The notes under the pieces: generated by a model | The model's database searches: none | Told to the model about the DNA's origin: nothing | Seen by the model: only the letters and a program-made list of their open reading frames with translations | Part shown: positions 12,446 through 33,558 of the stretch, one piece after another | How the letters are laid out: each line of letters begins with the position of its first letter | Numbering within the stretch: the first letter of the stretch is position 1 | Program-made: the position numbers and the translations under genes | Assembly (NCBI GenBank): GCA_963749445.1 | Contig: CAVVMJ010000003.1 | Location: forward strand, 715 to 64,714 | Reading direction: 5' to 3' | Length of the DNA stretch: 64,000 bases | Origin: an uncultured bacterium | Lineage (GTDB): Bacteria; Patescibacteriota; Doudnabacteria; UBA920

Positions 12446-12494
12446 TTACGCATTGCGGATTGCGGATTGCGAATTCGTAATGCGAAATCCGTAG

Positions 12495-13320: not shown

Positions 13321-13347
13321 TTAGCACTCTAACCTGTCAAGTGATAA
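13321..13347. promoter_or_regulatory. CIRCE-like inverted repeat (HrcA operator)
   Basis: TTAGCACTC-N9-aAGTGaTAA against consensus TTAGCACTC-N9-GAGTGCTAA, ~70 bp upstream of hrcA. Confidence 0.6.
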
Positions 13348-13422
13348 TCCAACTAATTTATTACTAGTCCTATTTGTGGATAATTATGGCAAAATAACAA
13401 AAATCCCCAATAAATAAAGGTG

Positions 13423-13451
13423 TTGACACTGGGTGAACGATTGTATACTAT
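13423..13451 (+). promoter_or_regulatory. sigma70-like promoter (TTGACA-N17-TACTAT)
   Basis: Upstream of the ORF6N gene. The same ~28-bp module recurs on the minus strand at 23817-23845, upstream of the R-M methyltransferase. Confidence 0.5.
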
Positions 13452-13489
13452 ATTAATACGATTAATTAATAACCCCAAAAAGGAGGCAT

Positions 13490-14026
13490 ATGGACAAAAC
13501 AAAATTAAATCAAATTACCAATATACTGCCGGTTTCCCCTAACTTTATTGAACGGCGGATTTACTCTATACGCGACCGGCAAGTTATGCTGGACAGCGAT
13601 TTGGCGGATTTGTATCAAGTAAAAACAAAAAACCTTAACAAAGCCATTAAGCGCAACCCGGATCGGTTTCCTCAAGATTTCATGTTTCAGCTCACTAAAA
13701 AAGAAGCGGGTAACTTGAGGTTCCAATTTGGAACCTCAAGTTACGGCGGCAGGCGTTATTTACCCTATGCTTTTAGCGAGTACGGAGTGGTTATGTTGTC
13801 TTCGGTTTTAAATAGCCATCGGGCCATACAAATGAACATCGCGATAGTCAGAGCCTTTATCAAACTTCGGGAAATGCTTGAGGAATATAAAGGCTTATCC
13901 AAACAAGTCGCCAAAATTAAAGGCGTCCAGGATTTACATACCAAAGTGTTGGTAAAAGTCGTAAAAAATTTAAAAAGAATCAGTACTCCCGTAAGCACCA
14001 CCGCGATTGGCTTTAGGGTTAATTAA
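13490..14026 (+). CDS. ORF6N-domain protein (phage antirepressor-like)
   Basis: IRDRQVMLDSDLADLYQVKTKNLNKAIKRNPDRFPQDFMFQLT matches the ORF6N signature. Confidence 0.7.
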   Translation: MDKTKLNQITNILPVSPNFIERRIYSIRDRQVMLDSDLADLYQVKTKNLNKAIKRNPDRFPQDFMFQLTKKEAGNLRFQFGTSSYGGRRYLPYAFSEYGVVMLSSVLNSHRAIQMNIAIVRAFIKLREMLEEYKGLSKQVAKIKGVQDLHTKVLVKVVKNLKRISTPVSTTAIGFRVN

Positions 14027-14037
14027 AAATAAAAAAT

Positions 14038-15222
14038 ATGAAAACCAAACACATTCTATTTGCGGCGATGGTAATTTTTGCCGCGCCAATGGTTAGCCAG
14101 GCCGCTGCCGCGCATAGTTCCCGCGTCTGCTCTGTGGCCAAAAAGACCGGACTGGCCAGCTGCAACGCCCATGTAGTGACGGACAATAAGGGGAAATTTT
14201 TGGTCAGCGCATCGCCGCAGGGTTTTAGCCCGACGCAACTGCGGAGCGCTTATGGTCTTTCCGGAAAAGCCAATAAAAATCCCATAGTCGCCATTGTGGA
14301 TGCTTACGATGACCCAACGCTAAAAAATGACCTGGATGTTTATAGCCGGCAGTTTGGCTTGCCGGTGTTGGCCGATTGCAAAACTGCCGTCGTCAAATCG
14401 CCAATCCCCTGCTTCCAAAAACTCAGCCAGCGGGGAACATCCGCTTTACCAAAACCAAACGGCGGTTGGGCGATGGAAATTGCGCTGGATGTGGAAACCG
14501 TGCATGCTGCGTGCGAAAACTGCTCTATATTATTGGTGGAAGCGACTTCGCCGAATATGAATAATTTGATGCTGGCCGTGGATACCGCAGTCAGAGCCGG
14601 CGCCGTTGCGGTTTCCAATTCTTACGGCGGTCCGGAATTCGCGCAGGAAACGCAATTTGACAGCCATTTCAATCACCCGGGCGTGGCTTTTACCGTCTCT
14701 TCCGGCGATAGCGGCTATGGCGTGGAATATCCCGCAGCTTCACCTTATGTTACGGCTGTGGGCGGTACTTCCCTATATTTAGGCGCTGATGGAAAATACA
14801 AAAACGAAGACGCCTGGAGCGGCGCCGGTTCGGGATGTTCGCAGTTTGAATCAAAACCCGCTTGGCAGACAGACGCGAAGTGTCCCGGACGGACGGTAGC
14901 CGATGTTTCAGCCGTGGCCGACCCCCAAACCGGCATAGCCATATACACTACCACCAGCACCAAAAACCAAAAAGGCTGGTTTACCGCGGGCGGTACATCT
15001 CTATCCGCGCCGCTCATTGCCGCAGTCTACGCGCTGGCCGGAAATTTACCCGCTGATAAAAACGCCAACAGCCTGCCCTACAGCTTAGGGTCAAAATCCA
15101 ATTTACACGATGTTGTCGGCGGCTCAAACGGGAACTGTAGTCCGGCGTATTTATGCACGGGCAAAACCAAATACGACGGCCCCACCGGCCTGGGCAGTCC
15201 CAAAGGTACGGGCGCGTTTTGA
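14038..15222 (+). CDS. secreted sedolisin-like (S53) serine peptidase
   Basis: Signal peptide; AIVDAYDDPTLKNDLDVYSRQFGLP, EIALDVE, SSGDSGYG and GGTSLSAPLIAAV motifs (Ser-Glu-Asp triad arrangement). Confidence 0.7.
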   Translation: MKTKHILFAAMVIFAAPMVSQAAAAHSSRVCSVAKKTGLASCNAHVVTDNKGKFLVSASPQGFSPTQLRSAYGLSGKANKNPIVAIVDAYDDPTLKNDLDVYSRQFGLPVLADCKTAVVKSPIPCFQKLSQRGTSALPKPNGGWAMEIALDVETVHAACENCSILLVEATSPNMNNLMLAVDTAVRAGAVAVSNSYGGPEFAQETQFDSHFNHPGVAFTVSSGDSGYGVEYPAASPYVTAVGGTSLYLGADGKYKNEDAWSGAGSGCSQFESKPAWQTDAKCPGRTVADVSAVADPQTGIAIYTTTSTKNQKGWFTAGGTSLSAPLIAAVYALAGNLPADKNANSLPYSLGSKSNLHDVVGGSNGNCSPAYLCTGKTKYDGPTGLGSPKGTGAF

Positions 15223-15233
15223 CTTTTTTCCTA

Positions 15234-15622
15234 TGATTAAAAAATTCTTAGAATGGATAAAATTAAAACAACGGCTCCATAATATCTCCGCTCAGCCCCC
15301 TTTAGTCCGCAAACGGGATTTATGGTGGCTAAGCTTGGGAGAAAACGTCGGGTCGGAAATGAATGGGAAAAGCGGACTATTTTCTAGGCCGGCGCTGATT
15401 CTAAAAAAGCTGGCGCATGGGTTTTTTCTGGTTGCCCCAACCACAACAAAAATCCACGAAGGCACTTGGTATGTAAAAATAAACTACGCGGGCAAAGACA
15501 TGTGGATTTGCCTTCATCAAATCAGGACAGTAGATTATCGCCGCCTGTCGAGCCAGCTCGGCCAAATTGGAACAGATGATTTTGAGCAGGTACAAATGGC
15601 TTTTTGGGAACTATACAAATAA
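15234..15622 (+). CDS. MazF/PemK/EndoA-family endoribonuclease toxin (N-terminally extended)
   Basis: DLWWLSLGENVGSEMNGKSGLFSRPALILKK...FLVAPTTTKI...IRTVDYRRL matches the EndoA/MazF pattern. Start taken at ATG 15234; the track ORF 15110 overlaps the peptidase gene. Confidence 0.7.
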
Positions 15623-15796
15623 AATTCCCCCGCTCTTGCGAGCGAGGGCCGTGGCTAATGCCGAATGTATTTATATATTAGCAGATCCAATAAATTTGTC
15701 AAGCCTATCGGATAAATAAAAATTGACACAAATATACCCATTATCTAAAATGACTGTACTCCATTAAAGCCGCCTTAGACGGCTAAAGGTAACCAT

Positions 15797-16198
15797 ATGA
15801 CTAACCCAAAATTCCTCATCGATGATAAAGAACTAAAAAAGAAGCTCACGCCCGAGCAATACCGTATTCTGCGGGAAAAAGGCACCGAGGCGCCTTTTAC
15901 CTCGCCCCTTTTAAATGCGCATGATAAAGGCATGTTTGCCTGCGCCGTTTGCGGCAACCAATTGTTCAGTTCCGATACAAAATTTGATTCCGGCACCGGC
16001 TGGCCGAGTTTTGACGAGGCGCTGCCCGGCGCCGTAGAATTGCGTGATGATTTTGACATGGGCATGCGCCGCACAGAAGTTGTTTGCGCCAACTGCAGCT
16101 CGCATTTAGGGCACGTATTCGATGATGGTCCTGTTGAAACCACCGGAAAAAGATTCTGCATCAACGGCGCGTGTCTGCTGCACCAGCCAAAAAAATAA
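15797..16198 (+). CDS. msrB: peptide-methionine (R)-S-oxide reductase MsrB
   Basis: CAVCGNQLF...GWPSF...CANCSSHLGHVFDDGP...RFCINGACL. Confidence 0.9.
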   Translation: MTNPKFLIDDKELKKKLTPEQYRILREKGTEAPFTSPLLNAHDKGMFACAVCGNQLFSSDTKFDSGTGWPSFDEALPGAVELRDDFDMGMRRTEVVCANCSSHLGHVFDDGPVETTGKRFCINGACLLHQPKK

Positions 16199-16294
16199 AA
16201 AACCTTAAGTCACCCATTCAACAAGCTAAGGCGGTTTTTCAAACTGGGCCAAAATGCTATAATAACCTAAAGAACAAAATAATCAAGAACCATT

Positions 16295-18559
16295 ATGAAA
16301 CCTTCTAAAAACGTCCGCGTAGTTGTCGTAATTTTATCACTCGCGATGACAGTTGCCCTGGCTAGTATGCCGCCAAAAACCAACGCAGCCCAAGCGTGCG
16401 CCACAACACTTTATCCCGGGGACAGCATCCAGGCGGCCGTGGACTGTAACACAGCCGGCACGACTTTTACCTTGACTCCCGGGGTCTACCGCGGACAGTC
16501 CGTCGCGCCAAAAAATAACGACGTGTTTGTGGGCCAGCCCGGCGCGATTTTAAACGGCTCCAAACTCTTAACTAATTTTACCCAACAAAACGGCATGTGG
16601 CTGGCCACGGGCCAAAGCCGGGTCGATCAGCCTCACGGAGATTGCGATGCCACCCATCCGGGCTGCAACTATCCCGAAGACTTATATTTTGACAGCATCC
16701 CCCTGCAACATATGGCCAACTTAAGCGACGTAGCTGCCGGCAAATGGTATTTTGATTACGCGGCGGGAATAGTTTATTTGGGCAATAACCCGGCCGGACA
16801 CACGGTTGAGCTCGGCGCCACAAAGACGGCCTTTGGCGGCGCGGCCACGGGCGTGACCATCCGCAATTTAATAATTGAAAAATACGCCAACAACGCCCAA
16901 ATAGGCGCCGTGGGCGGCGATAAGTGGGGTTCGGACAAGCCGTTCAACTGGACTTTGCAAAACAACGAAATCCGCCTGAACCACGGCGCCGGCATCAGCC
17001 TCTTGGACGGGGCGGAAGTAAACGGCAACTATATTCACGACAACGGCGAAATAGGCTACTCGCTCCAGGGAAAAAATATTGTTTTTGAAAACAACAATCT
17101 GGCCTATAACAACTACGCCGGATTTGATTGCGGCTGGGAATGCGGCGGGGGCAAGGCGGCGTTTACCAATAATCTGACTTTCCGCAATAATTATTCCCAC
17201 GACAATTTCGGACCCGGCTTTTGGACCGACACCGACAATGTTAATACCACGTACAGCGGCAATGTCATAGCCAACAACCAACTGGAAGGCATTGAGTACG
17301 AAATCAGCTTTTCGGGTAAAATTACCAACAACACTTTTTTGAACAACGGAAGCGGCCGGTCGTATGGCGTGCCGTGGGGCACGCAAATCATGCTTTATAA
17401 TTCCCAGAATGTGGAAATTTCGGGCAATACGCTGGTGGTGTCGCCGAGCTTGGGCAACGGCATAGGTTTAATGGATACCCCGCGCGGCTCCTCCGCCACT
17501 TTAGGCGCTTATTTGCTTGCTAACAACAGTATTCACGATAACGACATGACTTACCAAGGATCTTCAGGAATGACAGGAGTCCAAAAAACCGACAGCAACT
17601 TTACCGTCAGCGGGACTATTGATCCCACAAATGTGTTTTATAACAACCATTATCACGCTTCGGACATAACCGCCAACCATTTTTATTGGAACGGCGCCAT
17701 GTCCTTTAGCGCTTTCCAGCAAAAGGGGCAGGAAACCCACGGCACTATGGATACAACCATTTCCGCGCACCCGTTGGTCATTCCCACCGGAGTCAGCAAT
17801 AACCCCACAGCCGCGGGCGCTGTTGCCGCGGTTCCCGTTGCGCCCCGCGCCGGCCAGCTGATTAACATTAACGGAACGGTCTACCTTGTTGCCAACACCG
17901 GCCTCTATGGTTTTCCCGATGCCGCGACTTTTTATTCCTGGGGGTATAAGTTTACCGATATTGTTACGGCCAACAGCGCGGAAACGGCTTTAAGTATGAT
18001 CGGATTAGTGCCAACCGAACAAGCCGGATGCTCCAGTCCGCTGAATCAGATTAACGGCAGTTGCGGCCAGGCCGGTTCAACCACCACGCCCAGAGTCGGG
18101 CAATTAGTCAACATAGGCAATACTGTCTATCTTGTTGCCAACACCGGCCTGTACGGCTTTCCCGATGCCCCGACATTTTATTCCTGGGGATTTAGCTTTA
18201 GCCAGATAGTGCCTGCCAACAGCGCGGAATCGGCTTTAACCATGATCGGATTAGTGCCAACGGAACAATCCGGATGTTCCAGCCCGATAAATCAAATAAA
18301 CGGCACCTGCGCTGTTTCTCAGGTCACCGCTAGGCCCGGCCAAATAATAAGCATCAACAAAACCGTTTACCTGGTTTCCAGCACCGGCCTGTACGGCTTT
18401 CCCGATGCCGCAACATTTTACTCCTGGGGCTTTACCTTTGACAATATTGTCGCTGCCAACAGCGCCGAATCCGCTTTGCCAATGATAGGGATAGTCCCAA
18501 CCAAACAAGCCGCCTGCACCCACCCCCTTGACCAAATCAGCGGCTCCTGCGGTTCTTGA
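16295..18559 (+). CDS. secreted right-handed beta-helix (pectin-lyase-fold) repeat protein with a 3x C-terminal ~80-aa repeat
   Basis: Signal peptide; many NNxxxxN beta-helix repeats; three tandem C-terminal repeats (G-Q-L-I/V-N-I-x-x-T-V-Y-L-V...GLYGFPDA.TFYSWG) at ~17830-18540. Confidence 0.55.
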   Translation: MKPSKNVRVVVVILSLAMTVALASMPPKTNAAQACATTLYPGDSIQAAVDCNTAGTTFTLTPGVYRGQSVAPKNNDVFVGQPGAILNGSKLLTNFTQQNGMWLATGQSRVDQPHGDCDATHPGCNYPEDLYFDSIPLQHMANLSDVAAGKWYFDYAAGIVYLGNNPAGHTVELGATKTAFGGAATGVTIRNLIIEKYANNAQIGAVGGDKWGSDKPFNWTLQNNEIRLNHGAGISLLDGAEVNGNYIHDNGEIGYSLQGKNIVFENNNLAYNNYAGFDCGWECGGGKAAFTNNLTFRNNYSHDNFGPGFWTDTDNVNTTYSGNVIANNQLEGIEYEISFSGKITNNTFLNNGSGRSYGVPWGTQIMLYNSQNVEISGNTLVVSPSLGNGIGLMDTPRGSSATLGAYLLANNSIHDNDMTYQGSSGMTGVQKTDSNFTVSGTIDPTNVFYNNHYHASDITANHFYWNGAMSFSAFQQKGQETHGTMDTTISAHPLVIPTGVSNNPTAAGAVAAVPVAPRAGQLININGTVYLVANTGLYGFPDAATFYSWGYKFTDIVTANSAETALSMIGLVPTEQAGCSSPLNQINGSCGQAGSTTTPRVGQLVNIGNTVYLVANTGLYGFPDAPTFYSWGFSFSQIVPANSAESALTMIGLVPTEQSGCSSPINQINGTCAVSQVTARPGQIISINKTVYLVSSTGLYGFPDAATFYSWGFTFDNIVAANSAESALPMIGIVPTKQAACTHPLDQISGSCGS

Positions 18560-18649
18560 TAAAACGGCTTGCGATAATCACAAAACGGCCATCTTGATTT
18601 ATCAGGATGGCCGTTTATCTTTGATTTGGCATTCTCCTATTCGCGCGAA

Positions 18650-21301
18650 TTAGAGCAGCTTAATGTAAGCGCGGGTGGTGTCGTCCAGCTGGCCGGTGGG
18701 TTTTAGGCCGGCATTTTTTTGGAACCTGATTAACGCCGCGCGCGTCCGTGGCCCAAAATAAATTGTTTCATTGCCCGGCGCCCCCGCGCCGTATTTTGCC
18801 AGAATAAAACCTTGGGTATTCAAAAATTGCTGTAAAAACTTAACGTCGTCGCCCTTCATCCCAAATTTTAGATTGCGTGGAAAATTATAAGTCGCCGCGC
18901 TCAAAACCACGGTTGTGGGAGTAGATGAAGAAACCGGAGTGGTGGTTGCGACCGTAGTTGTCGCGACAGGCAATGCAACCGGCGAAAAATAAACAGAACC
19001 GCCGCCGACCGATAATGTTGGTACAACCGATGCGGATGACGATGCGGCCGGCGGGCTGACGATTGTAAAACCCGTTGATTGGACTTCTTCCGCGTTGCCC
19101 ACGCGGTCAGTGGAGTAAAAACTAATTTGATGTTGGCCGACGCCGCTAACGCTAACCGGCGTCGCAGTCGCGTCTAGAAACGTTGAATCAAAAGTGGACG
19201 AAGCCTCCTGCCATTGCCCGCCGTCAAGCTGGTACATAATTTTGTAAATTCCCGATGTCTGGTTTTCCTGCCCGGCGATTATCTGATCGCTCGCCGCCAA
19301 ATCAACCTCCACCCCGCCGACAAAATCCCCGTCCGCGTTTTTATCGCCTAAAACCGTAACCGATGACACCGGCGACAACAAATCCAAAGACTGGTTTTGG
19401 TCCAGCGTGGCGGAAGGAACAATAACACGGTCGTCGCTGGTAAAATTTATTGTCTGGTCGTTAGTAAAATTTAAAGTTAATTCAGCCGTGGATGTCGCGG
19501 TAATAGGCACGCCGCCATAATAAGCGGTACTAACGATTTGTCCGTCAATAATTTTGGATGAATAAAAATCAAAAGTCCCGTTGTCCGTGGCAATAAATTT
19601 AATAGTATAGGTATGCCCCGGCGGTAGGAAAGCAAATTTATCATGATCTAAAACATCATATTGGACTCCGTCAATATTATAATCAAAACTGCCGTCCGGA
19701 TTTAGACCAACATGGTTGCCAAGTTCGTCATAAACTTGCAGATTGACAGGGCTGTGCACGGACACCTGCTCGCCGTCGAAATGGCATTCTGATGAGTCTT
19801 GCGTTATTTTAGTTTCCGGTAAATTATCGCCAGTAATAATGTTCTCAACCTGCTGCCTTATGCCATCGTGGGTAAGCATGGTGCCATGTAACTCATCCGT
19901 ATCCAGAACATAATAATTTTGTGTACCTTTTATATTGCTGGCGGAAATTATTGGCACTGTCCCATCACCGGCCACATAGTTTAGCTTATAATCTCCATTG
20001 CTACCAATTAAAATTTGTCCTACTGTTCCGCTCTGACAACCCATAATGTTGTAAGTTTGCATACCGCTGCCAGAAAAATCCATATTGTCAAAACCCGCAC
20101 TATGAAAAATCCCCGATTGGTCAATCAAATTTGAATTTCCTCCCAGATCCTTTAAGGCCTTTGTTGAGTCGGCAAAATTGTAAACTTGGCCGCCAATTAA
20201 GGAAACGCTAGAGTTTAAACTACCCAAATAACCAGTGGAGTGATTAAAATACTCCTGGCTGGGCAGCATTTGATAAACTGCCGGCATATTTTGACTGATT
20301 TTTTTCATTTCAGCCGGATCAAGTCCGATAAACCATTTTTTTACTCCAAGCGAGTCGCCATAAAGCAACATTTTCGCCGATTGTGGAGCGCCTAAATTCG
20401 GCGTACCAACAAAAACCAATTTGTTGATTTTACCCGCGTATTCCGGATGGTCATAAAGCAAACGTTTGATTAATAATCCACCTTGACTATGAGCGACTAT
20501 ATCAATTTTGCCTGTTGTACTTGAGGCGACAAGCGTATCAATTTCCGGCTTGAGAAAATTATCAGAATTCTTTTTTATATCGTCCCGCCAGTCATAAGGA
20601 AATAAAAATAAATTTGGATTGGTGCTGGTTGAATAGCCTTTAGCAATTAAATCAAACACCAATTGTTTCGAATAATCAAATGTCGGATGAGGTGCTCCTA
20701 AAACTTGTCCTAATGTTAAGCTAGCATCTACTGGGTTGCCGTTTGAATCGAAAGCTAAAGGATCCATAAAACCATCGGACGGCTTTAATATACTTGCCAT
20801 CCTTCCTATATCTGGCCACAAGATTTCACTGCCTTTATCAATTTCCGTTCCCAAAGTGCCTGGGATTATCAATAATGGCGATGTTATTACAGTGGAAACG
20901 TCATTAAAAACGCAAGTTATGGTAACATTGCCATTCAAGCCATCCATTTCCACCCCGTCCTCTATGGGAATAAAATTCCCGTTGCCGTCACTGCTTGAAC
21001 AGTTAACGCTTCGCGTTTTCCAACCGGGCTGATTATCCTCGTAAAATAGATAATCGTTTGTTCGCACATTAATTTCCGAGGATCCTTGTCCTCCAGTCGT
21101 TGTTGTTTGAATCTGAAAGTCCGGGAGCAAATTAAAGCTACTACCATTTTTTCCGTAGCCGTAAAAATTAAAAACTCCGTCGCCGCCAATAGAATTCTTT
21201 ATAACTACCAGCCTTAAACTTGACCACGGAGAAATAACCATCGCGAAAGTTTGCCATGGTAAAAAGGTCAGACAAATTATAACGATTAATTTTTTATACA
21301 C
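18650..21301 (-). CDS. secreted alpha/beta-hydrolase lipase with C-terminal peptidoglycan-binding domain
   Basis: Signal peptide; lipase nucleophile elbow IVAHSQGG; C-terminal PG_binding_1-like LKFGMKGDDVKFLQQFLN...GPRTRAALIRFQKNAGLKPTG. Confidence 0.65.
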   Translation of the reverse strand: MYKKLIVIICLTFLPWQTFAMVISPWSSLRLVVIKNSIGGDGVFNFYGYGKNGSSFNLLPDFQIQTTTTGGQGSSEINVRTNDYLFYEDNQPGWKTRSVNCSSSDGNGNFIPIEDGVEMDGLNGNVTITCVFNDVSTVITSPLLIIPGTLGTEIDKGSEILWPDIGRMASILKPSDGFMDPLAFDSNGNPVDASLTLGQVLGAPHPTFDYSKQLVFDLIAKGYSTSTNPNLFLFPYDWRDDIKKNSDNFLKPEIDTLVASSTTGKIDIVAHSQGGLLIKRLLYDHPEYAGKINKLVFVGTPNLGAPQSAKMLLYGDSLGVKKWFIGLDPAEMKKISQNMPAVYQMLPSQEYFNHSTGYLGSLNSSVSLIGGQVYNFADSTKALKDLGGNSNLIDQSGIFHSAGFDNMDFSGSGMQTYNIMGCQSGTVGQILIGSNGDYKLNYVAGDGTVPIISASNIKGTQNYYVLDTDELHGTMLTHDGIRQQVENIITGDNLPETKITQDSSECHFDGEQVSVHSPVNLQVYDELGNHVGLNPDGSFDYNIDGVQYDVLDHDKFAFLPPGHTYTIKFIATDNGTFDFYSSKIIDGQIVSTAYYGGVPITATSTAELTLNFTNDQTINFTSDDRVIVPSATLDQNQSLDLLSPVSSVTVLGDKNADGDFVGGVEVDLAASDQIIAGQENQTSGIYKIMYQLDGGQWQEASSTFDSTFLDATATPVSVSGVGQHQISFYSTDRVGNAEEVQSTGFTIVSPPAASSSASVVPTLSVGGGSVYFSPVALPVATTTVATTTPVSSSTPTTVVLSAATYNFPRNLKFGMKGDDVKFLQQFLNTQGFILAKYGAGAPGNETIYFGPRTRAALIRFQKNAGLKPTGQLDDTTRAYIKLL

Positions 21302-21313
21302 TTGTTAGAACAA

Positions 21314-21667
21314 TTAAAATGCAACTTGAATTGAAGAAAGACGGTATAAATTCAAAATTAATAAAGAAAAAATAAAAATGATAAAAACAACTATCCAAAG
21401 AGCAACTCTATTCTTAATATTCTTTCTTATTATTATTAAAAAAATCGCCGTGAAGAAAAGGCCAAAAAATTCTAATAATATCAGATTGCTCCATAAGCCA
21501 GCATTACCATAGCTATCTAAAAAATTAGGTCTCCAAACCTGGTAAGATCCATTTTTAAGAGAGCTGACGGTTGCATAATACATTTTGTATGCTGGGCTCC
21601 ACAACACTTCCGGCACCACGAACATTGCCAAAAATATTCCTAACAAAATTCTTTGCAGTTTTGTCAT
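21314..21667 (-). CDS. hypothetical membrane protein
   Basis: 117 aa, three TM helices. Confidence 0.3.
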   Translation of the reverse strand: MTKLQRILLGIFLAMFVVPEVLWSPAYKMYYATVSSLKNGSYQVWRPNFLDSYGNAGLWSNLILLEFFGLFFTAIFLIIIRKNIKNRVALWIVVFIIFIFSLLILNLYRLSSIQVAF

Positions 21668-21749
21668 TTTGTTTCCTTTCGTTTTATAAATTACCCTATC
21701 TTAATAATATCAAACCAAAAACCGCTGTCAATAAGCGGTTTAAACTGGC

Positions 21750-22280
21750 TCATTCCCACCGCTTGAACAAGTTGCTGACAAGCCCGTTTTTTATACTTCT
21801 GTAAATTTTTACACATAACGCACCCAATATATCCGATACAAATATCACAACAAGTAAATTAGAGAATACGATTAAATATAAAATAAGTCTTTTTGAAACA
21901 TCGTAACTATCGTATTGAAAATGGGTAACTAAAATTAGAGGGTATGAGATAAGTAAAAACCCAAAATCCGTAAAGTTAAACCAGCCCGGCTCATAAAACA
22001 AATTAAAAATTGTTGAAACAATGACTAATCCTAAACTTACACCCAGAACAATATAACCAATTTTTGAAAAGAATAGCCGCTTTCCTTCTGCTTTTGGATT
22101 CTTTCGATAAAAAGAATAGACCTGTTGAAAGAAAGGAATGGAAATAAAAGCCAAAACTACTCCCCCACCCAATACTTGCGACATATCCCCGATGGATACC
22201 AAGAACAAAAAAAGCACAAGCGTTATCCAAGCACTCACAATAGTAAAAAACACGTCTTTATAAAGAAAATATTTTCGCAC
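21750..22280 (-). CDS. hypothetical membrane protein
   Basis: 176 aa, multi-pass. Confidence 0.3.
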   Translation of the reverse strand: MRKYFLYKDVFFTIVSAWITLVLFLFLVSIGDMSQVLGGGVVLAFISIPFFQQVYSFYRKNPKAEGKRLFFSKIGYIVLGVSLGLVIVSTIFNLFYEPGWFNFTDFGFLLISYPLILVTHFQYDSYDVSKRLILYLIVFSNLLVVIFVSDILGALCVKIYRSIKNGLVSNLFKRWE

Positions 22281-22334
22281 TGCAAAAAATTATTCAGTTA
22301 ATTTTATATTTGGTTTTTCTTCAAAGTATTTGCC

Positions 22335-22859
22335 TTATTTGGGTAAGGGTAAACCTAATTTTTTTAGTGGCAAATATTCAAAATAGTACTGGCACCCAAC
22401 GGAAATAATATAATCAAGCGTGTCTTTATAAGCTGGATGTTTGAACCAGTCGCTTAAAATGTAAATATATTCAACTTCAATATTAAGAGCTGACATCAGC
22501 TTCTTATATTGCTTCTTTTTAAAATCGCAGGTTTGCAATTTTTCGTCTACCGAACCAGCAACTTTTTGGAATTTCATTTCAATGATGAAGAGCGTGTTAT
22601 TTACAATAACATAAAGCGCCTCATCTGGAAGTAATTTTTTGGAAATTATTTTTTTGTAATCAACCTTCTGCGATTCCAAATATTTGTACAGCCCGTTTTT
22701 CCTGTAGCTTTTTGCCACTTCTTTGCCGTTGAATAAAATTGTATTACCGTGTTGAACCGTGTAACCTTTAGTCTTAGATAAAAGGGTTAAAATATCTATT
22801 TTTCTTTCAAACTTTAAGCCAGTTTGAGTGTTGGCACCACCTTTGCCTTTTTCAATCAT
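22335..22859 (-). CDS. putative type II restriction endonuclease (PD-(D/E)xK)
   Basis: PDEALYVIVNNTLFIIEMKFQK gives a PD...ExK nuclease motif. Lies immediately downstream of, and co-directional with, a DNA methyltransferase. Confidence 0.45.
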   Translation of the reverse strand: MIEKGKGGANTQTGLKFERKIDILTLLSKTKGYTVQHGNTILFNGKEVAKSYRKNGLYKYLESQKVDYKKIISKKLLPDEALYVIVNNTLFIIEMKFQKVAGSVDEKLQTCDFKKKQYKKLMSALNIEVEYIYILSDWFKHPAYKDTLDYIISVGCQYYFEYLPLKKLGLPLPK

Positions 22860-22864
22860 AAAGA

Positions 22865-23816
22865 CTATTTAAACAATTCGGCTTGCTTGACCCCGATCTT
22901 GTTGATTAATTTTATTGTTTTTGAGCTTTCAATTTTTATAGTCGCCTTATTTAGTTCCGCGACTAAAAGTCCAAGCTCATTATATCTTTTTATGGATAAA
23001 TCCAAGTATTTTTTCTCTAGATCCATACCTATAAATTTTCTTTTAAGAGCACTGGCGGCAATGCCGGTGGTGGAACTACCAGTAAATGGATCCAAAATAA
23101 CATCACCCTCATTGGTGCTGGCAAGAATAATTCGCTTGAGCAAATCTATGGGTTTTTGGGTTGGGTGTTTGCCAAACTTTTTTTCAGCGGGTTTTGGCGT
23201 TCCCATTGACCAAACCGAACGCATTTGGAGCCCTGGCTTTTTTAAGCGCATCTTCCGGCCAGGTGCCGTTTTTCATCAAATCATAATTAAAAATATGTTT
23301 TGCCGTTTTGTCTTTTCTTGCCCAAATTAAAGTTTCGTGGCTGGCAGTAAAAAATCGACAACTTAAATTAGGTGAAGCGTTCGGTTTAAACCAAGCAATA
23401 TCATTAAGCACATGAAAACCAGCGACCTGCAAAGCAAAGCCGCATTGATAAATTGAGTGATAAGTTCCACTAATCCAAAGCGTACCCGACGGCTTTAAAA
23501 CTCTTTTGACAGCCTGTATCCATTCAAGGTGGAATTCAAAATCTTTTTTGAGACCATTGCTCTTGTCCCACTCACCTTTATTTACGCTCACTCGCCTTCC
23601 GGCATGAACACTAAACCCGCCATTGGAAAGTAAGTAAGGGGGGTCCGCAAAAACCATATCAACAGAATTTTCAGGCAACTGCTTGAGTATATTTAAACAA
23701 TCAGAGTTATATAAGACAAAATCACTCTGAATAAAATAAGGTTTATCCTGAACCCCAGAAAGGATTTTGGTGTTAGCCTCCATATGCTTTTTTTTAGTTT
23801 TTTTCTTCCTTTTCAT
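22865..23816 (-). CDS. beta-class N4/N6 DNA methyltransferase, split by an apparent single-base frameshift near 23225
   Basis: N-terminal part has DMVFADPPYLLSN (motif IV). C-terminal part has HPTQKPIDLLKRII and VILDPFTGSSTTG (motif I). The two ORFs overlap at 23184-23251 and the junction falls in an A6 run. Confidence 0.8.
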
Positions 23817-23845
23817 ATAGTATACAATCGTTCACCAATTGTCAA
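23817..23845 (-). promoter_or_regulatory. sigma70-like promoter (TTGACA-N17-TACTAT) abutting the methyltransferase start
   Basis: 28 of 30 nt identical to the promoter at 13423-13451. Confidence 0.45.
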
Positions 23846-24406
23846 ATAAATACTTGTGGATAAGTTTTTTGAGGCTCTCTTTTAGCTAATTTTAGCATTT
23901 TTAGGGCGGTTTAACCAATTTTAAAGGCCCGGGTTGGAGCCTTTGGTTTTATTGATGAATGATAGCTGGTTGGTGTCAGGGTTTAAATAGAAATTACCAT
24001 CTGATATGCGTATTTTCAGTTGTCCGATTTTTTCGGGCAACTCACTTACTTCCTCGCAAGCTTTTGGGAATAAGATAAGATACGTAATCTAGAATTTGGT
24101 TTTAGTGTCGGCGCATCCGTTAAGTAAAATTTACCTTCTGGTGTCCGCATTTTCAGGCGGTCACATTTTGTGACGACCTCGCGGCTATCCTGCACAATGA
24201 TTTTCAAACTGTGACATTTTGTCACGGTTTCATTTTTTATAGTTGAGGGCAGTCCTCTGGCGTAAGAGTCCTAAAGCAGAGGGCTGTCCTCAATCTCAAA
24301 ACAATACAATTTTAAAGGCCCGAGTTAGGGGCATGTGGTTTGAATAACGATAGATTTTCTCCCCCGATAATAAGGCCGATAAATCGGCAGACTACGGGGC
24401 ACACTA

Positions 24407-24643
24407 TTATCTGATATCGGTGTCGGGGATGAGGCCTTGCTGGATTAACTCGGAGCGGTGTTTGACGATTTCGGCATCGGTGCCGGTGAACAGGCACATT
24501 TTTCCGCAGCCGCGGCATTTGACTTCCAGGGCGCTGCCGGCATCGCTTAAGAAACCTTTACACAAAAGTTTGTGGCAATCCGGGCAGCGGTATTCCTTTA
24601 AATACTTTGGGTCTATCATATTTCTGCGGCTTCTTGCCGTCAC
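24407..24643 (-). CDS. Mu Com-like zinc-ribbon regulator
   Basis: YRCPDCHKLLCKG...EVKCRGCGKMC fits the Com family (CxxC-KLL...CxRCxK). It lies ~590 bp upstream of, and co-directional with, the methyltransferase. Confidence 0.55.
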   Translation of the reverse strand: MTARSRRNMIDPKYLKEYRCPDCHKLLCKGFLSDAGSALEVKCRGCGKMCLFTGTDAEIVKHRSELIQQGLIPDTDIR

Positions 24644-24889
24644 ATTAAAGGCTGGTTGATGAAAGTATTTTAGCAGATGATAAAGCGGGAATCAAGGGCG
24701 ATAATCATCGGTAAGGGATTGCCGCGTCGCCCCTCGGATGCACTCAGGGCTCCTCGCAATGACGAACGAAATTTGGCAGGCCAATCCACCTCCGCTAAGG
24801 CTACGGCGGACAAGGTGGCCTGTACTGCATCGGGCGGATGGTATCCGCCCCTACATCCGCGCAATCTGCGACATCCGCGTATCCGCAAA

Positions 24890-27795
24890 CTACAATACCT
24901 TTTTCAAATACTGCCCCGTAAAACTCGCTTTGACTTTGACAATGTCTTCGGGCGTGCCCGCGGCCACGAGCTCGCCGCCCTTGTCCCCGCCTTCGGGGCC
25001 AAGGTCTATGACCCAGTCCGCGGTTTTGATAATGTCCAAATTGTGCTCAATCACCACCACGGTGTTGCCCTTTTCCACCAGCTTGTTTAAAACCAAAATC
25101 AATCTTTTAATGTCGGCAAAATGCAGGCCCGTGGTCGGCTCATCCAGCAAATACAAAGTCCGGCCCGTGGCCGCGCGCGAAAGTTCGGTCGCCAGTTTAA
25201 TCCTTTGCGCTTCCCCGCCGCTCAAAGTGGTGGCGTTCTGGCCCAAACACATATAGCCCAAGCCCACCTGGGACAGGGTTTCCAGTTTTTTGTGGATTTG
25301 CGGCAAATTGGCAAAAAACACTTTGGCGTCATCTACTGTCATTTCCAAGACGTCGGAAATATTTTTTTCCTTGTAATGGATTTCCAAAGCCTGTTGGTTG
25401 TAGCGCTTGCCGTGGCACTCGTCGCAGGTAATGTACACATCCGGCAAAAAATTCATTTCCACCTGGATGACGCCGTCGCCCGCGCATTTTTCGCACCGCC
25501 CGCCGCGCACGTTAAAACTGAACCGGCCGGCCCGGTAACCGCGCATCCGCGCCTCGCGCGTGTCGGAAAACAAATCGCGGATCGGCGTAAACAAACCCGT
25601 GTACGTGGCCGGATTGGAACGCGGCGTGCGGCCGATTGGCGATTGGTCAATATTTATAATTTTATCCAAATGTTCCAGCCCCAGAATTTTTTTGTGCTTG
25701 CCCGGCTCTTCCTTGCTGTTAAAAAAATAGTGGTTCAGCGCTTTGGCCAAAATTTCGTTGAGCAAAGTGGATTTGCCGCTGCCGGACACGCCGGTGACGC
25801 AAACAAATTTGCCCAGCGGAATATCCGCGTTAATATTTTTAAGGTTAAATTCCTCGGCTCCCACAATGCTGAGTTTTCTGCCGTTACCCGGGCGGCGCCG
25901 CTTGGGCACTTCTATAAATTCCTTGCCTGCCAAATACTGGCCGGTTAAACTTTTGGCGCTTTTTTGGATTTGCGGCCGGCGTGCCTTGGGCCACCAGTTC
26001 CCCGCCGTGCTTACCCGCGCCCGGCCCAATGTCCACCACCCAGTCCGCCTCGCGGATGGTTTCCTCGTCGTGCTCCACTACGATTACAGTATTACCCAAG
26101 TCGCGCAAATCTTTTAAAGTTTGCAGCAACCGACGGTTGTCGCGCTGATGCAGGCCAATGGAAGGTTCATCCAATATATAGAGCACACCGGTGAGCCCGC
26201 TGCCGATTTGCGTGGCCAGGCGGATGCGCTGCGCTTCCCCGCCGCACAAAGTATCGGCCGTTCGGTCTAAAGACAAATAAGCCAGCCCCACATTCAGCAA
26301 GAACGAAAGCCGCGCATTAATTTCCTTTAAAATCTGTTTGGATATAGTTTGGTCTTTAACGCTTAAGACTTTGGGCAAATTTTTAAAAAATTCCGCGGTT
26401 TGGTCTATGGACAGGTGGGAAACATCCACTATCCCCTCACCGCCCACGGTTACGACCAAAACTTCGGGCTTGAGGCGTTTGCCCAAACAAACCTCGCACT
26501 GGCGGACGCGCATATAATTTTCGATTTCGCTGCGCATAAATTCGGAATCGGTTTCGCTGTAGCGGCGCTGCAAGTTGGGAATGACGCCCTCAAAAGCGGT
26601 ATTCATTTCAAACTGGCCGTCGCGGGTGGAAAATTCGCCGGCCACTTTGACTTTTTTCCCGCCCGTGCCGTACAAAACCACGTCAATAATTTTTTTGGGG
26701 AGATCCTTAACCGGCGTGTTCACGGAAAATCCGTATTCTTTGGCCACGGCTTCTAAAATTCGCGAGTACCAAGACAGGCGCGAAGTGGTTTTGCTCCACG
26801 GGCGGACGGCGCCTTCGGCCAGGGTTAATTTTTGGTTGGGCATAACCAAGTCCGGCTCCACCGTGAGCTTGGTGCCCAGGCCCTTGCACTCCGGGCAGGC
26901 GCCGTGCGGGCTGTTAAAACTAAAATCGCGCGGGTCCAGCTCGTTAAGCGACATATGCCCGTCAGGACAGGCAAAATTTTGGGAGAGGGTGATTTCTTGT
27001 CCCCCTGTAGCGGCATGCCTCGGCATGCCGTCTTGTTTAGGCACGCCACGGCGTGCCTCTACATCAGATGATACCATTTTAATGGCAATCGCCATCCCAT
27101 CGCCCAAATCCAAAGCCTTTTCCAAACTCTCGGCCAACCGCGCCCGGTCTTTTTGGGAAATGATAATTCTGTCCACCACCACGTCTATGGAATGTTTTTT
27201 TTGCTTGTCCAAATTTAGCCCCTGGGCCTCGTTCAAATCCATAACCGTACCGTCCACGCGGACGCGGGCAAAACCTGCTTTTTTGATTTGTTCAAAAATA
27301 TGCTTGTGCTCGCCTTTTTGGTCGCGCACAAACGGCGCCAGGAGCATCAAGCCGGTGCCTTCGGGCAAACTCGAGCAGCTGCTCCACCATGGCCTGCGGG
27401 GTCTGGCCGGAAATTTTTTTACCGCAAACCGGGCAGTGCGGAATGCCGATGCGAGCGTACAATAATCTTAAATAGTCATAAATTTCCGTGACCGTGCCCA
27501 CGGTTGAGCGCGGATTGTGGCTGGCGGATTTTTGGTCAATGGATATTGCCGGGCTCAAACCCTCTATTTTATCCACATCAGGTTTATCCATAAGGCCGAT
27601 GAACTGGCGCGCGTAGGCGGAAAGCGATTCCACATAGCGGCGCTGGCCTTCGGCGTAAATGGTGTCAAACGCCAAAGACGACTTGCCACTGCCCGACAAG
27701 CCGGTTAACACCACTAGCTTGTTGCGCGGCAAATCCACGTCCAAATTTTTTAAATTGTGCATCCGCGCCCCGCGGATGCTTATAATGTCCTTCAT
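24890..27795 (-). CDS. uvrA: excinuclease ABC subunit A (UvrA), broken into three ORFs by two apparent homopolymer frameshifts (~27367 and ~25965), with an in-frame repeat insertion
   Basis: Three consecutive overlapping ORFs carry UvrA N-terminus ([34 protein letters not shown]), middle (Zn-finger, ABC signature) and second ABC domain ([10 protein letters not shown]...[12 protein letters not shown]). The element at 27004-27066 encodes [20 protein letters not shown]. Confidence 0.85.
27004..27066. repeat. palindromic repeat family C inserted in frame in uvrA
   Basis: ggcacgccgtggcgtgcc and ggcatgcc(c)cggcatgcc hairpins. The same element sits in frame in uvrC at 30079-30141. Confidence 0.8.
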
Positions 27796-29166: not shown

Positions 29167-31131
29167 ATGACCCAAATCCAAAATCTCTCCACCAGCGGCG
29201 GATCCGCCTTCGGCGGAAAATCCAAAATCTCAAATATCCCAAAACAGCCCGGCGTTTACCAGTTTTTGGATAAAGACGGCGGGGTTATTTATATTGGCAA
29301 GGCCAAAAATTTGCGCTCGCGCGTGGGGCAATATTTTAACGGCAGCGATGAGCGGCCCCAAATCCCCCACCTGATGAATGAGGCGGCGGATTTTAGTTAT
29401 ACCGTTGTCAATAACGAACTGGAAAGTTTGTATTTGGAAAACACTTTGATAAAACAGTATCTGCCGAAATATAACATTTTACTGCGCGACGACAAAAACT
29501 ACGCGTTCATTAAAATAGATTACTCAACCGAGATACCGCAGATTGGCTACGCAAGAAAAATAGAAAATCCGGGACTTAGCCCTAAACCCTTAGCCCTTAG
29601 CCCTAAATACTTTGGTCCCTACACCGCCGCCTACAAAATCCGCGACACACTTCATTTAATGCGCAAAATTTTTCCCTACTGCTCGGCGACAAAAGTTTCG
29701 GGAAAACCGTGTTTCCACTATCACCTGCACCGCTGCCCGGGCGTGTGCATTGGGAAAATCACGCTTGACGAGTACCGGCTGACCTTAAAAAAAATTGAGG
29801 ATTTTTTGGCCGGCAATACGGCAAAAGTCGGCAAACAGCTGCAAAGCGAAATGCGCACTGCCGCCTCCAAAAAACAGTTTGAAAAAGCCGCCCGTTTGCG
29901 CGACCAACTGAATTCGCTAAAGCTTTTACAGGAACGCCAAACCGTAATTTTAGCCAAAAAAGTGGACTGGGATATTGTGTCTTTGGCGGCTTCCGATGGT
30001 TATGCCTGCGTTAACCTGTTTAAAGTGCGCGAAGGCAAATTGCAGGACAAAGAAGATTTTGTGTACGAGATGGGCTCCGATGTAGAGGCACGCCGTGGCG
30101 TGCCTGAACAAAATGACGGCATGCCCCGGCATGCCGCTACAGAATATACATTAACATTACAAACCTTCCTTGAACAGTACTATTCGGAAGCTTCCAGCGT
30201 TCCTAAAATTATTTATACCCAATATCAGGTCCGGGAATATCGGCTCATAGAAAAACTGATCCGCTCGCGTTATGACCGCGCAGTCAAAATCATCACGCCC
30301 CAAAAAGGCAAAGCCAAAGGGTTAATCAAGCTCGGAACAGCCAACGCGCAGGAATACCTGACGAAATGGCTTTCAGATCAAGCCGGGCATTTGGACAAAA
30401 TCAACCGCGCGCTGGAAGGCCTTAAAAACGCGCTTTGTCTGGAAAAAATCCCCGAGCGGATAGAGTGTTACGACATCAGCAATATCCAGGGCACCAACGC
30501 CGTGGGCAGCATGGTGGTGTTTAAAAACGGCCTGCCGGCCAAATCCGAATACCGAAAATTTCGGATAAAAACCAAGCACACGCCTGACGATTTTGCGATG
30601 ATGCGCGAGATATTGCAAAGAAGATTTAGGCACAATTACGAATTACGCATTACGGATTCTGAAAATTCGCAATCCGCAATCCGCAATCCGCAATCTTACA
30701 ATTGGCCTCTCCCCGACCTCATTGTCATCGACGGCGGAAAAGGACAACTCTCCGCGGCGCTAGGAGCGCTGCGGAAATTTCCAATTTCCAATTTCCAATT
30801 TCCAATTATTGGCTTGGCCAAAAGGATTGAAGAAATCTTCGTTCCGGGCAAATCCGAACCCATTATTTTGCCGCACGACGATCCCGCACTCCAACTCCTC
30901 CAGCGCCTGCGCGACGAGACGCACCGTTTTGGAATTATTTTTCATCGCCAGCTCCGCTCCAAGCAGGCCGTCCGGTCAGCGCTTGATAACATCCCAGGGT
31001 TAGGCCCCAAAACCAAAAAACTGCTCAAAGCCAAATTCGGCACCGTAGCCAGCATCCGGAAAGCCGATTTAAATGATCTTGCCTCGGTTGTTGGGGATAA
31101 AATAGCGCGGAATATAAAATCAAATGTATGA
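29167..31131 (+). CDS. uvrC: excinuclease ABC subunit C (UvrC), carrying in-frame repeat insertions
   Basis: GIY-YIG N-terminus GVYQFLDKDGGVIYIGKAKNLRSRV, UvrBC domain, endonuclease V-like and HhH C-terminus. Contains repeat C (30079-30141, [21 protein letters not shown]), ATCCG-type repeats (30640-30700) and a (TTTCCAA)4 microsatellite (30778-30807). Confidence 0.93.
   Translation: MTQIQNLSTSGGSAFGGKSKISNIPKQPGVYQFLDKDGGVIYIGKAKNLRSRVGQYFNGSDERPQIPHLMNEAADFSYTVVNNELESLYLENTLIKQYLPKYNILLRDDKNYAFIKIDYSTEIPQIGYARKIENPGLSPKPLALSPKYFGPYTAAYKIRDTLHLMRKIFPYCSATKVSGKPCFHYHLHRCPGVCIGKITLDEYRLTLKKIEDFLAGNTAKVGKQLQSEMRTAASKKQFEKAARLRDQLNSLKLLQERQTVILAKKVDWDIVSLAASDGYACVNLFKVREGKLQDKEDFVYEMGSDVEARRGVPEQNDGMPRHAATEYTLTLQTFLEQYYSEASSVPKIIYTQYQVREYRLIEKLIRSRYDRAVKIITPQKGKAKGLIKLGTANAQEYLTKWLSDQAGHLDKINRALEGLKNALCLEKIPERIECYDISNIQGTNAVGSMVVFKNGLPAKSEYRKFRIKTKHTPDDFAMMREILQRRFRHNYELRITDSENSQSAIRNPQSYNWPLPDLIVIDGGKGQLSAALGALRKFPISNFQFPIIGLAKRIEEIFVPGKSEPIILPHDDPALQLLQRLRDETHRFGIIFHRQLRSKQAVRSALDNIPGLGPKTKKLLKAKFGTVASIRKADLNDLASVVGDKIARNIKSNV
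30079..30141. repeat. palindromic repeat family C inserted in frame in uvrC
   Basis: Reverse complement of 27004-27066. Because uvrA and uvrC are on opposite strands, both genes translate it to the same peptide. Confidence 0.8.
30778..30807 (+). repeat. (TTTCCAA)x4 microsatellite inside uvrC (encodes ISNFQFPI)
   Basis: Direct 7-bp tandem repeat; note it is not a multiple of 3 per unit. Confidence 0.85.
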
Positions 31132-33395: not shown

Positions 33396-33482
33396 GCCGC
33401 GGTGGTGGAATTGGCATACACGTACGTTTCAGGTACGTATGGGAGCAATCCCGTGAGGGTTCAAGTCCCTCCCGCGGCACCA
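33396..33482 (+). tRNA. tRNA-Leu(CAG), class II with long variable arm
   Basis: Acceptor GCCGCGG/CCGCGGC, anticodon stem TACGT/ACGTA with loop TTCAGGT (anticodon CAG), variable arm GGGAGCAATCCC, T arm GAGGG-TTCAAGT-CCCTC, encoded CCA. Confidence 0.7.
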
Positions 33483-33558
33483 CTTGTGCGGGGCACGCAC
33501 GTTTCAGGTACGTGTGGGAGCAATCCCGTGGAGGTTCGAGTCCTCTCCTGTACACCAA
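33483..33558 (+). other. partial tRNA-Leu-like duplicate (anticodon arm to CCA; no matching 5' acceptor or D arm)
   Basis: gcacgcacgtttcaggtacgtgtgggagcaatcccgtggaggttcgagtcctctcctgtacacca parallels the 3' two-thirds of the preceding tRNA at ~85% identity. Confidence 0.4.

Follow-up and report, generated by a model that had tools for sequence, protein, structure and literature searches.

What controls a restriction-modification (R-M) operon that lies behind a small gene of the Com type known from phage Mu? The question is raised by positions 22,335 to 24,643 of a 64,000-nucleotide stretch of DNA from an uncultured Doudnabacteria bacterium (contig CAVVMJ010000003.1 of assembly GCA_963749445.1; the whole stretch is called the window here, and positions are counted from its first letter). 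Read on the minus strand, the order is a com-like gene, a 590-bp gap, a DNA methyltransferase (MTase) gene and a 174-amino-acid (aa) open reading frame (ORF), just as an earlier reading of the bare letters (the original prediction) had stated. That reading took the gap for a structured leader through which the Com homologue governs the R-M genes. Our comparison with other genomes, whose loci carry numbers with the prefix L, points to a different answer: we judge it quite probable that this is a conventional type II R-M operon with a LexA-box promoter of its own, to which com and the spacer are unconnected. The elements on which this reading depends are the following.

22865 to 23783, minus strand: beta-class N6-adenine DNA methyltransferase (CcrM/HinfI-like), with its probable start at the second Met, ATG 23783
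22335 to 22859, minus strand: 174-aa PD-(D/E)XK protein, presumed restriction endonuclease, starting 5 nt past the MTase stop
23817 to 23845, minus strand: SOS-type promoter of the R-M genes, with the -35 hexamer TTGACA at 23845-23840 and the -10 hexamer TACTAT at 23822-23817
23836 to 23820, minus strand: probable LexA operator of the R-M promoter, GGTGAAC-GATT-GTATAC
23856 to 23863, minus strand: DnaA-box-like TTATCCAC, just upstream of the -35 hexamer of the R-M promoter
13376 to 13451, plus strand: second SOS-type promoter, with the -35 hexamer at 13423-13428, the operator at 13432-13448, the -10 hexamer at 13446-13451 and GTGGATAA at 13376-13383

The promoter ahead of the MTase has the form TTGACA-N3-GGTGAAC-GATT-GTATAC-TAT, with near-consensus hexamers and 17-nt spacing. 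As a 31-nt module (TTGACAnnnGGTGAACGATTGTATACTATAT), it occurs exactly twice in the 64 kb, at 13423-13453 on the plus strand and 23845-23815 on the minus strand, and in none of 100 shuffles, which bears out the earlier observation that nearly identical promoters precede the MTase and an ORF6N gene. The ORF6N gene (13490-14026, plus strand) matches Pfam PF10543 with an E value of 1e-32, and its product also matches the PADLOC candidate defence family PDC-S05 (E 1.7e-54). A DnaA-box-like 8-mer accompanies both promoters (23863-23856, minus strand; 13376-13383, plus strand). Beyond these two sites, no further SOS box was found in the window, including upstream of uvrA.

In other genomes, the module stands upstream of homologous MTase genes in L013, L014-L016, L020, L026, L031, L037, L069 and L083. 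In L012, which holds a 95%-identical copy of the R-M genes, a DUF4096 transposase-like element cuts the promoter right after the GTATAC half-site; this insertion (4100-5080) leaves the -35 hexamer and the operator ~940 bp from the gene. L094 and L126 keep the GGTGAAC and GTATAC half-sites, with GACG and ATGG as the central 4 nt. As the half-sites are kept while the centre varies, the site can be written as GTGAAC-N4-GTATAC.

Which regulator reads this site was addressed by scanning one genome per species (596 Gb) for the 17-mer GGTGAACGATWGTATAC, which yielded 77 loci; by our own estimate, roughly 100 or more chance matches would be expected for such a 17-mer. Scattered hits in Proteobacteria, Firmicutes and other phyla were without promoter geometry. 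Hits with a -35-like hexamer (mostly TTGAC or TTTAC) exactly 3 nt upstream came nearly all from Doudnabacteria, Saccharibacteria and the Patescibacteria group, often several per genome, with a few labelled just 'bacterium'. When the first downstream ORF of 48 promoter-type sites was scanned against Pfam, the following families were obtained.

14 of 48 first ORFs: LexA (Peptidase_S24 together with LexA_DNA_bind)
9 of 48: RhuM, 8 of them with Fic
7 of 48: N6_N4 methyltransferase
4 of 48: RecA
4 of 48: IMS/DinB-type polymerase
1 of 48: Bro-N
1 of 48: PIF1 helicase
1 of 48: EcoRII-C nuclease
1 of 48: Eco57I-type methyltransferase

R-M genes make up 9 of the 48 first ORFs, about a fifth, to which L075 can be added, a locus too truncated to score; about a quarter of the targets are RhuM, Bro-N or ORF6N-type genes. 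Because the promoters of lexA, recA and dinB-type polymerase genes share the box, it is probably the LexA operator of this lineage, placed within a sigma-70 promoter. The co-regulation of the R-M and ORF6N genes that the original prediction drew from their common promoter is supported, since the module also precedes lexA, recA and dinB, and both targets are probably LexA-repressed and DNA-damage-inducible.

At both window sites the operator occupies the DNA from the -35/-10 spacer into the -10 hexamer, and LexA, once bound there, would thus keep RNA polymerase off the promoter. In the mechanism that we propose, the R-M operon would be transcribed from its own sigma-70-type promoter (23845-23817), at which LexA on the operator would block RNA polymerase; upon DNA damage, RecA-stimulated cleavage of LexA would release the operon, and the ORF6N gene (13490), with the same promoter, would respond together with it. 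Transcription would be expected to start near 23810, ~7 nt past the -10 hexamer, giving a short purine-rich 5′ untranslated region (UTR), and translation to begin at the second Met, 23783.

Several loci from the scan deserve mention in their own right. In L017, L024, L041, L046, L060, L087 and L092, the ATG of lexA or dinB lies exactly 9 nt past the 17-mer operator, a spacing that would suit leaderless mRNAs whose first nucleotide is the A of the start codon. R-M genes directly behind an SOS promoter in Doudnabacteria and Saccharibacteria include an EcoRII-C nuclease (L079, 2573-3373) and an Eco57I-family methyltransferase (L081, 6373-7551). In L083 (2109-2993), the SOS promoter is followed by an N6_N4 MTase and then by a different ORF of 265 aa.

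The 31-nt module could also be read as a strong constitutive promoter, or as a mobile promoter cassette copied along with accessory genes, acting with no repressor at all. Its near-consensus -35 and -10 hexamers at 17-nt spacing would suit this role, many of the genes behind it are of the accessory or mobile type (RhuM-Fic, Bro-N, ORF6N and R-M), and part of the 5′ UTR travels with the MTase. However, 17 invariant bases across the spacer and the -10 hexamer would be needless in a constitutive promoter, and a gene set headed by lexA (14 of 48), recA and dinB is the signature of an autoregulated SOS regulon. The retention of both half-sites around a variable centre in L094 and L126 is likewise at odds with a promoter that binds no repressor, as is the resemblance of GAAC-N4-GT.. 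to the Gram-positive LexA box, GAAC-N4-GTTC. We regard this alternative as unlikely and continue with LexA control.

A second element travels with the operator. The 8-mer TTATCCAC, the core of the DnaA-box consensus, is found within 77 nt upstream in 40 of 54 promoter-type sites (loci L017-L093), where the background rate is 0.0097 per 77-nt window. Measured from the operator, inverted copies lie at -55 to -57, lexA promoters included, and forward copies at -17/-18 or -25 to -27. Promoters of the -55 class often have a T-run hairpin between the 8-mer and the -35 hexamer. In L012, TTATCCACA and TTTCCACA are present upstream of dnaA. Binding of DnaA at TTATCCAC is a guess.

Are the genes behind the promoter a working R-M pair? 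In the assembly, the MTase is read as two overlapping ORFs (23816-23184 and 23251-22865), both of which match PF01555 (N6_N4 MTase), with E values of 9e-28 and 6e-27. Among NCBIfam models the protein is nearest to CcrM, which is also its best relative of solved structure (6pbd, E 6e-57), and it carries an ADPPY motif of the catalytic type (D/S)PP(Y/F). As the best solved relative is CcrM, GANTC would be a reasonable guess for its specificity. The break between the two frames is due to one extra A (+1) in an A6 run at 23238-23243. Deleting one A gives a continuous protein of 316 aa from the first ATG, with a junction (...EDALKKPGLQMRSVW...) identical to that of the L012 homologue.

Taken at face value, the shifted frame could mean that the R-M unit is a decaying remnant, in which a genuine MTase frameshift has left the unit non-functional or the nuclease is inactive as well. 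The two frames of the MTase in the assembly would agree with this, the AT-rich composition of the R-M part (33-39% GC vs ~50% in the flanks) suggests acquired DNA, and a pseudogene relic of the Bro-N type adjoins. Yet the shift amounts to a single extra A in an A6 run, and the housekeeping gene uvrA (24890-27795, minus strand) is itself broken twice in the window: it is read in three ORFs that overlap at 27349-27368 and 25902-25990, with an A6 run in the second overlap region. L003 and L012, which come from similarly numbered ENA assemblies (ERZ250394xx-ERZ250395xx), also hold many broken genes, rpoB and rpoC in L003 among them. The frameshift is therefore probably a homopolymer assembly error, and such indel errors have to be kept in mind for any other broken gene of the window. 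The two MTase halves and the nuclease are otherwise intact, the nuclease being 92-95% identical to its closest relatives, and an intact nuclease beside a dead MTase would be lethal to the cell. We consider it improbable that the pair is a remnant and treat it below as an intact operon.

With the frame restored, the start of the MTase can be placed. The first ATG (23816) directly abuts the -10 hexamer, and in homologous MTases the upstream in-frame ATG, where it comes directly after the promoter, lies 1-5 nt past the 17-mer box; at that distance, it is unlikely to be in the mRNA. The homologues are called from METQTKIL (L012) and MENGAKIL (L013), which are equivalent to MEANTKIL at 23783. A conserved K/R-rich N-terminal extension from the first ATG was considered and rejected as coding sequence, given that this ATG is too close to the box for transcription and that the purine-rich UTR is open in that frame. 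Of the two starts offered by the original prediction, the downstream one at the second Met, MEANTKIL, agrees with the homologues, and the leaderless one is not supported. The 5′ UTR ahead of the start codon would be at most about 27-35 nt.

The 174-aa protein resembles PD-(D/E)XK nucleases. Its AlphaFold model has a pLDDT of 81.6, and the Foldseek matches in the Protein Data Bank (PDB), weak as they are, are mostly nucleases of this fold, including arenavirus and bunyavirus cap-snatching endonucleases, Can2/Cdn1, Hjc, XisH, BspD6I, BstEII, HincII and Mus81. The residues P78-D79 and E94-x-K96 are invariant across its homologues. Against PDDEXK_11 the protein scores 22.6 bits, below the cut-off of 23.7; a search of its sequence against solved structures gave no match (best E 0.14), and PADLOC returned none. 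The endonuclease call of the original prediction is favoured by the structural matches and the invariant PD...ExK residues, whereas the Pfam match stays below threshold. Homologues number 5625, and conservation is unusually high: the best 120 of these 5625 are 74-95% identical and are spread over many candidate phyla radiation lineages.

MTase and nuclease genes travel together. In all five loci L012-L016 the nuclease follows the MTase, immediately in four of them and after a 144-aa ORF in L013, and of 80 metagenome loci with the nuclease, 64 also have the MTase gene in the same orientation. No ORF with a helix-turn-helix match that could be a C protein was found among the small ORFs tested between 22335 and 24400. 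Given the identity of the MTase, the PD-(D/E)XK evidence and the tight pairing, a type II R-M operon is the best reading of the MTase and the 174-aa protein, with nuclease activity presumed from sequence and fold.

Does the gene upstream belong to this operon? Its position and features are these.

24407 to 24619, minus strand: com-like gene, 70 aa from ATG 24619, Com-type zinc ribbon

The longer form of the ORF comprises 78 aa (24643-24407, minus strand), with GTG 24643 as an alternative start; the 70-aa length of the database homologues places the start at ATG 24619. In a profile search, the ORF matched PF10122 (Zn_ribbon_Com) with 26.1 bits (E 6e-6), above the gathering score of 22.9 bits, so that the Com assignment of the original prediction stands, and we conclude from its sequence that the protein is a genuine Com-type zinc ribbon. 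The match covers residues 15-49 of the 78-aa ORF. C12, C15, C35 and C38 (CxxC...CxxC) are invariant across 12 homologues, and a C-terminal tail, RSxLIxQGLIPDTD, is conserved outside the Pfam match. Close homologues of the protein number 20 (61-100% identity), with one further match that is partial and weaker; among 50,697 phage records searched by tblastn, no significant Com homologue was found (best E 0.8).

The genomic contexts of the com homologues vary, as the following loci show.

L001 (Candidatus Doudnabacteria, 949-kb contig): uvrA, 204-aa ORF, com, type IV pilus ATPase
L009: uvrA, com, S8 peptidase, hrcA, grpE, without R-M genes
L003 and L011: ileS and an aminotransferase
L005: sortase and glycosyltransferase
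L007: RibD_C and mscL

An R-M gene directly adjoined com in 0 of 8 com homologue contexts, and a com gene directly adjoined the MTase-nuclease pair in 0 of 5 R-M contexts (L012-L016). The recurrent neighbour of the com-like gene is uvrA. In L013, which shares its Doudnabacteria genome with L001, rpoC is followed by the MTase, a 144-aa ORF, the nuclease and an LCAT-like protein; L012 and L014-L016 have the R-M pair in contexts other than rpoC, again without an adjoining com. The R-M genes of the window likewise have an LCAT-like protein downstream, an ORF of 883 aa. Since the window and L013 share the R-M-LCAT block and differ in its upstream neighbour, com in one and rpoC in the other, the adjacency of com is, from these comparisons, incidental, and com is an independent conserved small gene of the lineage. 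We also note in L013 a 74-aa ORF between the aminotransferase gene and ileS, ~5 kb from the R-M pair, that may be a com-like paralogue.

Compared with L009, the window carries different DNA over the entire stretch from com (24407) to the hrcA promoter (~13350). These ~11 kb (13350-24406) correspond to only an S8 peptidase in L009 (3238-4949). Besides the R-M genes, the segment carries two small membrane ORFs, the LCAT-like protein with a peptidoglycan-binding domain, a beta-helix protein, a probable MsrB (by inspection of its sequence), a PemK-like toxin, a subtilase and the ORF6N gene. It is bracketed by the two inward-facing SOS promoters, which form a 39-nt inverted pair with 87% complementarity; the idea that this pair marks the ends of a 10.3-kb mobile or invertible element was set aside, as the pair is two copies of one promoter. 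An independent short-read contig, L004, is 99.9% identical to the window and stops at 24375, just past the hairpin that follows com.

What, then, is the DNA between com and the MTase? The full non-coding gap (24406 to 23817) measures 590 bp, has no credible ORF and contains the following.

23846 to 24406: spacer from com to the MTase promoter, non-coding, not a leader of that promoter
24362 to 24399, minus strand: hairpin after the com stop, -19.1 kcal/mol, z -2.1
24206 to 24294, plus strand: two hairpins, more stable on the plus strand and antisense to the R-M genes
23916 to 23950 and 24307 to 24341: two copies of a direct-repeat box (copy 1, CAATTTTAAAGGCCCGGGTT...), 77% identical over 35 nt
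about 23987 to 24192, minus strand: decayed Bro-N-type fragment found by tblastn, frameshifted and internally duplicated, holding both short inverted repeats

The MTase promoter (23845-23817) forms the 3′ end of the gap, with ~560 bp upstream of it, so the 590 bp cannot be the transcribed leader of that promoter. Nothing similar to the spacer was seen upstream of the homologous R-M genes in L012-L016, and Rfam gave no spacer match, either with the whole window at gathering thresholds or with 23700-24950 at E<=1. Folded as a whole, it is only moderately better than shuffled sequence (z -2.8, 20 shuffles). The structured leader of the original prediction is not borne out by these results.

Local structure is present in the spacer. 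The inner stem of the hairpin after com (24388-24375) with its T-rich tail was flagged as terminator-like, and this hairpin is the probable terminator of com. The other two hairpins favour the plus strand: the terminator-like one with a T-run at 24206-24230 reaches -12.7 kcal/mol (z -5.0) on the plus strand and is weaker on the minus strand, and that at 24242-24294, with a 19-bp stem, reaches -32.1 kcal/mol (z -7.8) on the plus strand vs -22 kcal/mol (z -4.1) on the minus strand. This long hairpin makes good part of the earlier claim of a palindrome-rich spacer; the statement that one palindrome occurs twice was wrong, as the two short inverted repeats differ (GTGACAAAATGTCAC at 24211-24225 and GTCACAAAATGTGAC at 24160-24174). 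Their degenerate pattern with 2 mismatches is not rare, with 6 of 100 shuffles reaching 2 matches. The duplicated box of ~30 bp that had also been described is real: CAATTTTAAAGGCCCGRGTT occurs twice (23916 and 24307), where 0.05 occurrences are expected by chance. A REP or MITE family was rejected, on the present data, as the source of these repeats; neither the short inverted repeats nor the box recur elsewhere in the window.

Part of the spacer is, to judge from its sequence, a decayed and internally duplicated Bro-N gene. Its translation contains three copies of (VTKC)xLKxxxxDGxFYxxD, resembling Bro-N proteins of the lineage such as SVTNCHQLKFQSSDGKYYYSD in L009, and the two short inverted repeats correspond to the codons of VTKCH and VTKCD. 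In tblastn searches with the L009 and L032 Bro-N proteins, the relic scored 27.7 bits, which 0 of 300 dinucleotide shuffles reached. A second match in another frame is collinear with the first and abuts it (CADTKTKF*ITYLILFPKACEE vs CANTEGIFRIIQSIPSPKAEPF). A 59-aa ORF in the spacer had no Pfam match. The ~560 bp between com and the promoter are, in our reading, inert or unrelated intergenic DNA.

Against this background, the Com model itself can be weighed. It holds that a com-MTase-nuclease transcript has a structured leader of 590 nt, to which the Com-like protein would bind and thereby activate MTase translation, as Mu Com does for mom. In its favour, the ORF, with its CxxC...CxxC ribbon, passes the Pfam threshold for Com, the fold of the spacer is somewhat more stable than that of shuffles and includes strong local hairpins, and the com, MTase and nuclease genes all lie on the same strand. 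In Mu, however, com and mom are adjacent and the Com target lies just 5′ of the mom start codon, whereas here the two genes are 590 bp apart, with a hairpin behind com and, ~35 nt ahead of the MTase start, a conserved promoter that belongs to the MTase itself. The most stable spacer hairpins form preferentially on the other strand, the other R-M loci lack the spacer, Rfam returned nothing for it, and neither the com contexts nor the R-M contexts examined show the two directly adjoining. The comparative context largely refutes post-transcriptional control of the R-M genes by the Com homologue, and we consider that model very unlikely. More generally, when a Com-family ribbon adjoins a methyltransferase, the linkage needs checking before Mu-like translational control is assumed.

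A conventional R-M operon under LexA is left as the preferred explanation, and a number of observations weigh against it. There is no LexA gene within the 64-kb window. The operator is only half-palindromic (GTGAAC vs GTATAC) and overlaps the -10 hexamer, such that its conservation could partly reflect promoter function. Only 2 of the 56 metagenomic R-M copies with enough upstream sequence carry the box. The nuclease assignment combines the sub-threshold Pfam match with structural matches that are weak (lowest E 9e-3). The depletion of GANTC in the window is mild, at an observed/expected ratio of 0.79, the third lowest of 16 NNxNN palindromes. The MTase would be dead if its frameshift were genuine, and our reading does not account for the plus-strand bias of the spacer hairpins. 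From the distribution of the box, the SOS wiring is specific to the lineage and not a property of this R-M family.

Other features of the window lie apart from these genes. The gene for tRNA-Leu(CAG) (33396-33543) has a 90%-identical 50-nt duplicate of its middle and 3′ part 12 nt later (33419-33468 and 33494-33543), a repeat of the kind left by an element integrated into a tRNA gene. A CIRCE-like inverted repeat, TTAGCACTC-N9-AAGTGATAA with one arm degenerate, is located upstream of hrcA at 13322-13348, in the DNA that separates this gene from the ORF6N promoter. Two families of dispersed intergenic repeats, GTCATTGCGAG...GCAATCT elements and heptamer-like hairpins (ATTACGGATT / AATCCGCAAT), look like REP-type elements; they were seen at 11211-11306, 11656-11763, 24747-24776 and 55864-55972, and also at 8220-8268, 12444-12495, 30634-30701 and 51650-51710, one copy lying between uvrA and com. 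A LOOT RNA (Rfam RF03000) at 40640-40757 on the minus strand scored 57.1 bits, with a gathering score of 46.4.

R-M systems are usually seen as constitutive or as controlled by their own C proteins, and LexA control of R-M genes has little precedent. To our knowledge, candidate phyla radiation bacteria are largely without CRISPR. If our reading is true, restriction would not be constitutive but would increase when DNA is damaged or replication is under stress, phage attack being one example, and a LexA operator in the R-M core promoter of several ultra-small species would tie restriction to the DNA-damage response. We hold it possible, at somewhat less than an even chance, that the SOS regulon of Doudnabacteria, Saccharibacteria and their relatives has been extended to defence and mobile-element genes through a bipartite module, in which a LexA operator within the core promoter is combined with the DnaA-box-like TTATCCAC at set distances upstream; the genes so recruited would be the type II R-M operon, other R-M genes, RhuM-Fic, Bro-N and ORF6N. 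The scan also provides a quick picture of the SOS regulon in uncultured lineages, in which lexA, recA and dinB are joined by a large share of defence and antirepressor-type genes. An R-M operon with a predicted SOS promoter is testable and moderately interesting, and not categorically new.

Comparison with known systems shows how much of this arrangement is familiar. As in the Gram-positive LexA/SOS regulon, the operator overlaps the promoter, lexA would be autoregulated, and recA and a Y-family polymerase belong to the set; the box shares the half-site GAAC and the 4-nt spacer with the Gram-positive one but has GTAT(AC), not GTTC, as its second half-site. The R-M genes resemble the CcrM/M.HinfI family in the DPPY motif, the PF01555 match and the gene order, with the MTase first and a small PD-(D/E)XK gene close behind; they differ in a nuclease without a named or solved relative and in that no C protein gene is present here. 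With Mu com-mom (PF10122), the locus has in common a small CxxC...CxxC ribbon that passes the hidden Markov model, encoded on the same strand upstream of a DNA-modification gene. It departs from Mu in that the linkage to the MTase is not conserved, that 590 bp, a hairpin and an independent promoter stand between the genes, and that the protein has the tail RSxLIxQGLIPDTD outside the Com match and no significant phage homologue.

Dual control by DnaA and LexA is on record for uvrB of E. coli (PMC6015884), where DnaA-box-like and LexA-box elements likewise occur in one SOS promoter region; here, by contrast, a single TTATCCAC stands at fixed offsets in most regulon promoters, that of lexA included. 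The SOS network of the Patescibacteria has been the subject of a dedicated paper (Sanchez-Osuna, Barbe and Erill, Environ Microbiol 2017;19:3465, as cited in PMC8565304), which, to judge from its topic, may already cover part of our regulon findings. In a gut-metagenome study by Cornish, Matthews and Erill (2014), LexA sites were predicted ahead of a type I HsdS cluster, and LexA was confirmed to bind in front of a rhuM/doc gene (PMC3998124). The R-M system of that study involves a type I specificity subunit in gut Firmicutes, whereas the one described here would be a type II operon of the candidate phyla radiation with the operator inside its core promoter.

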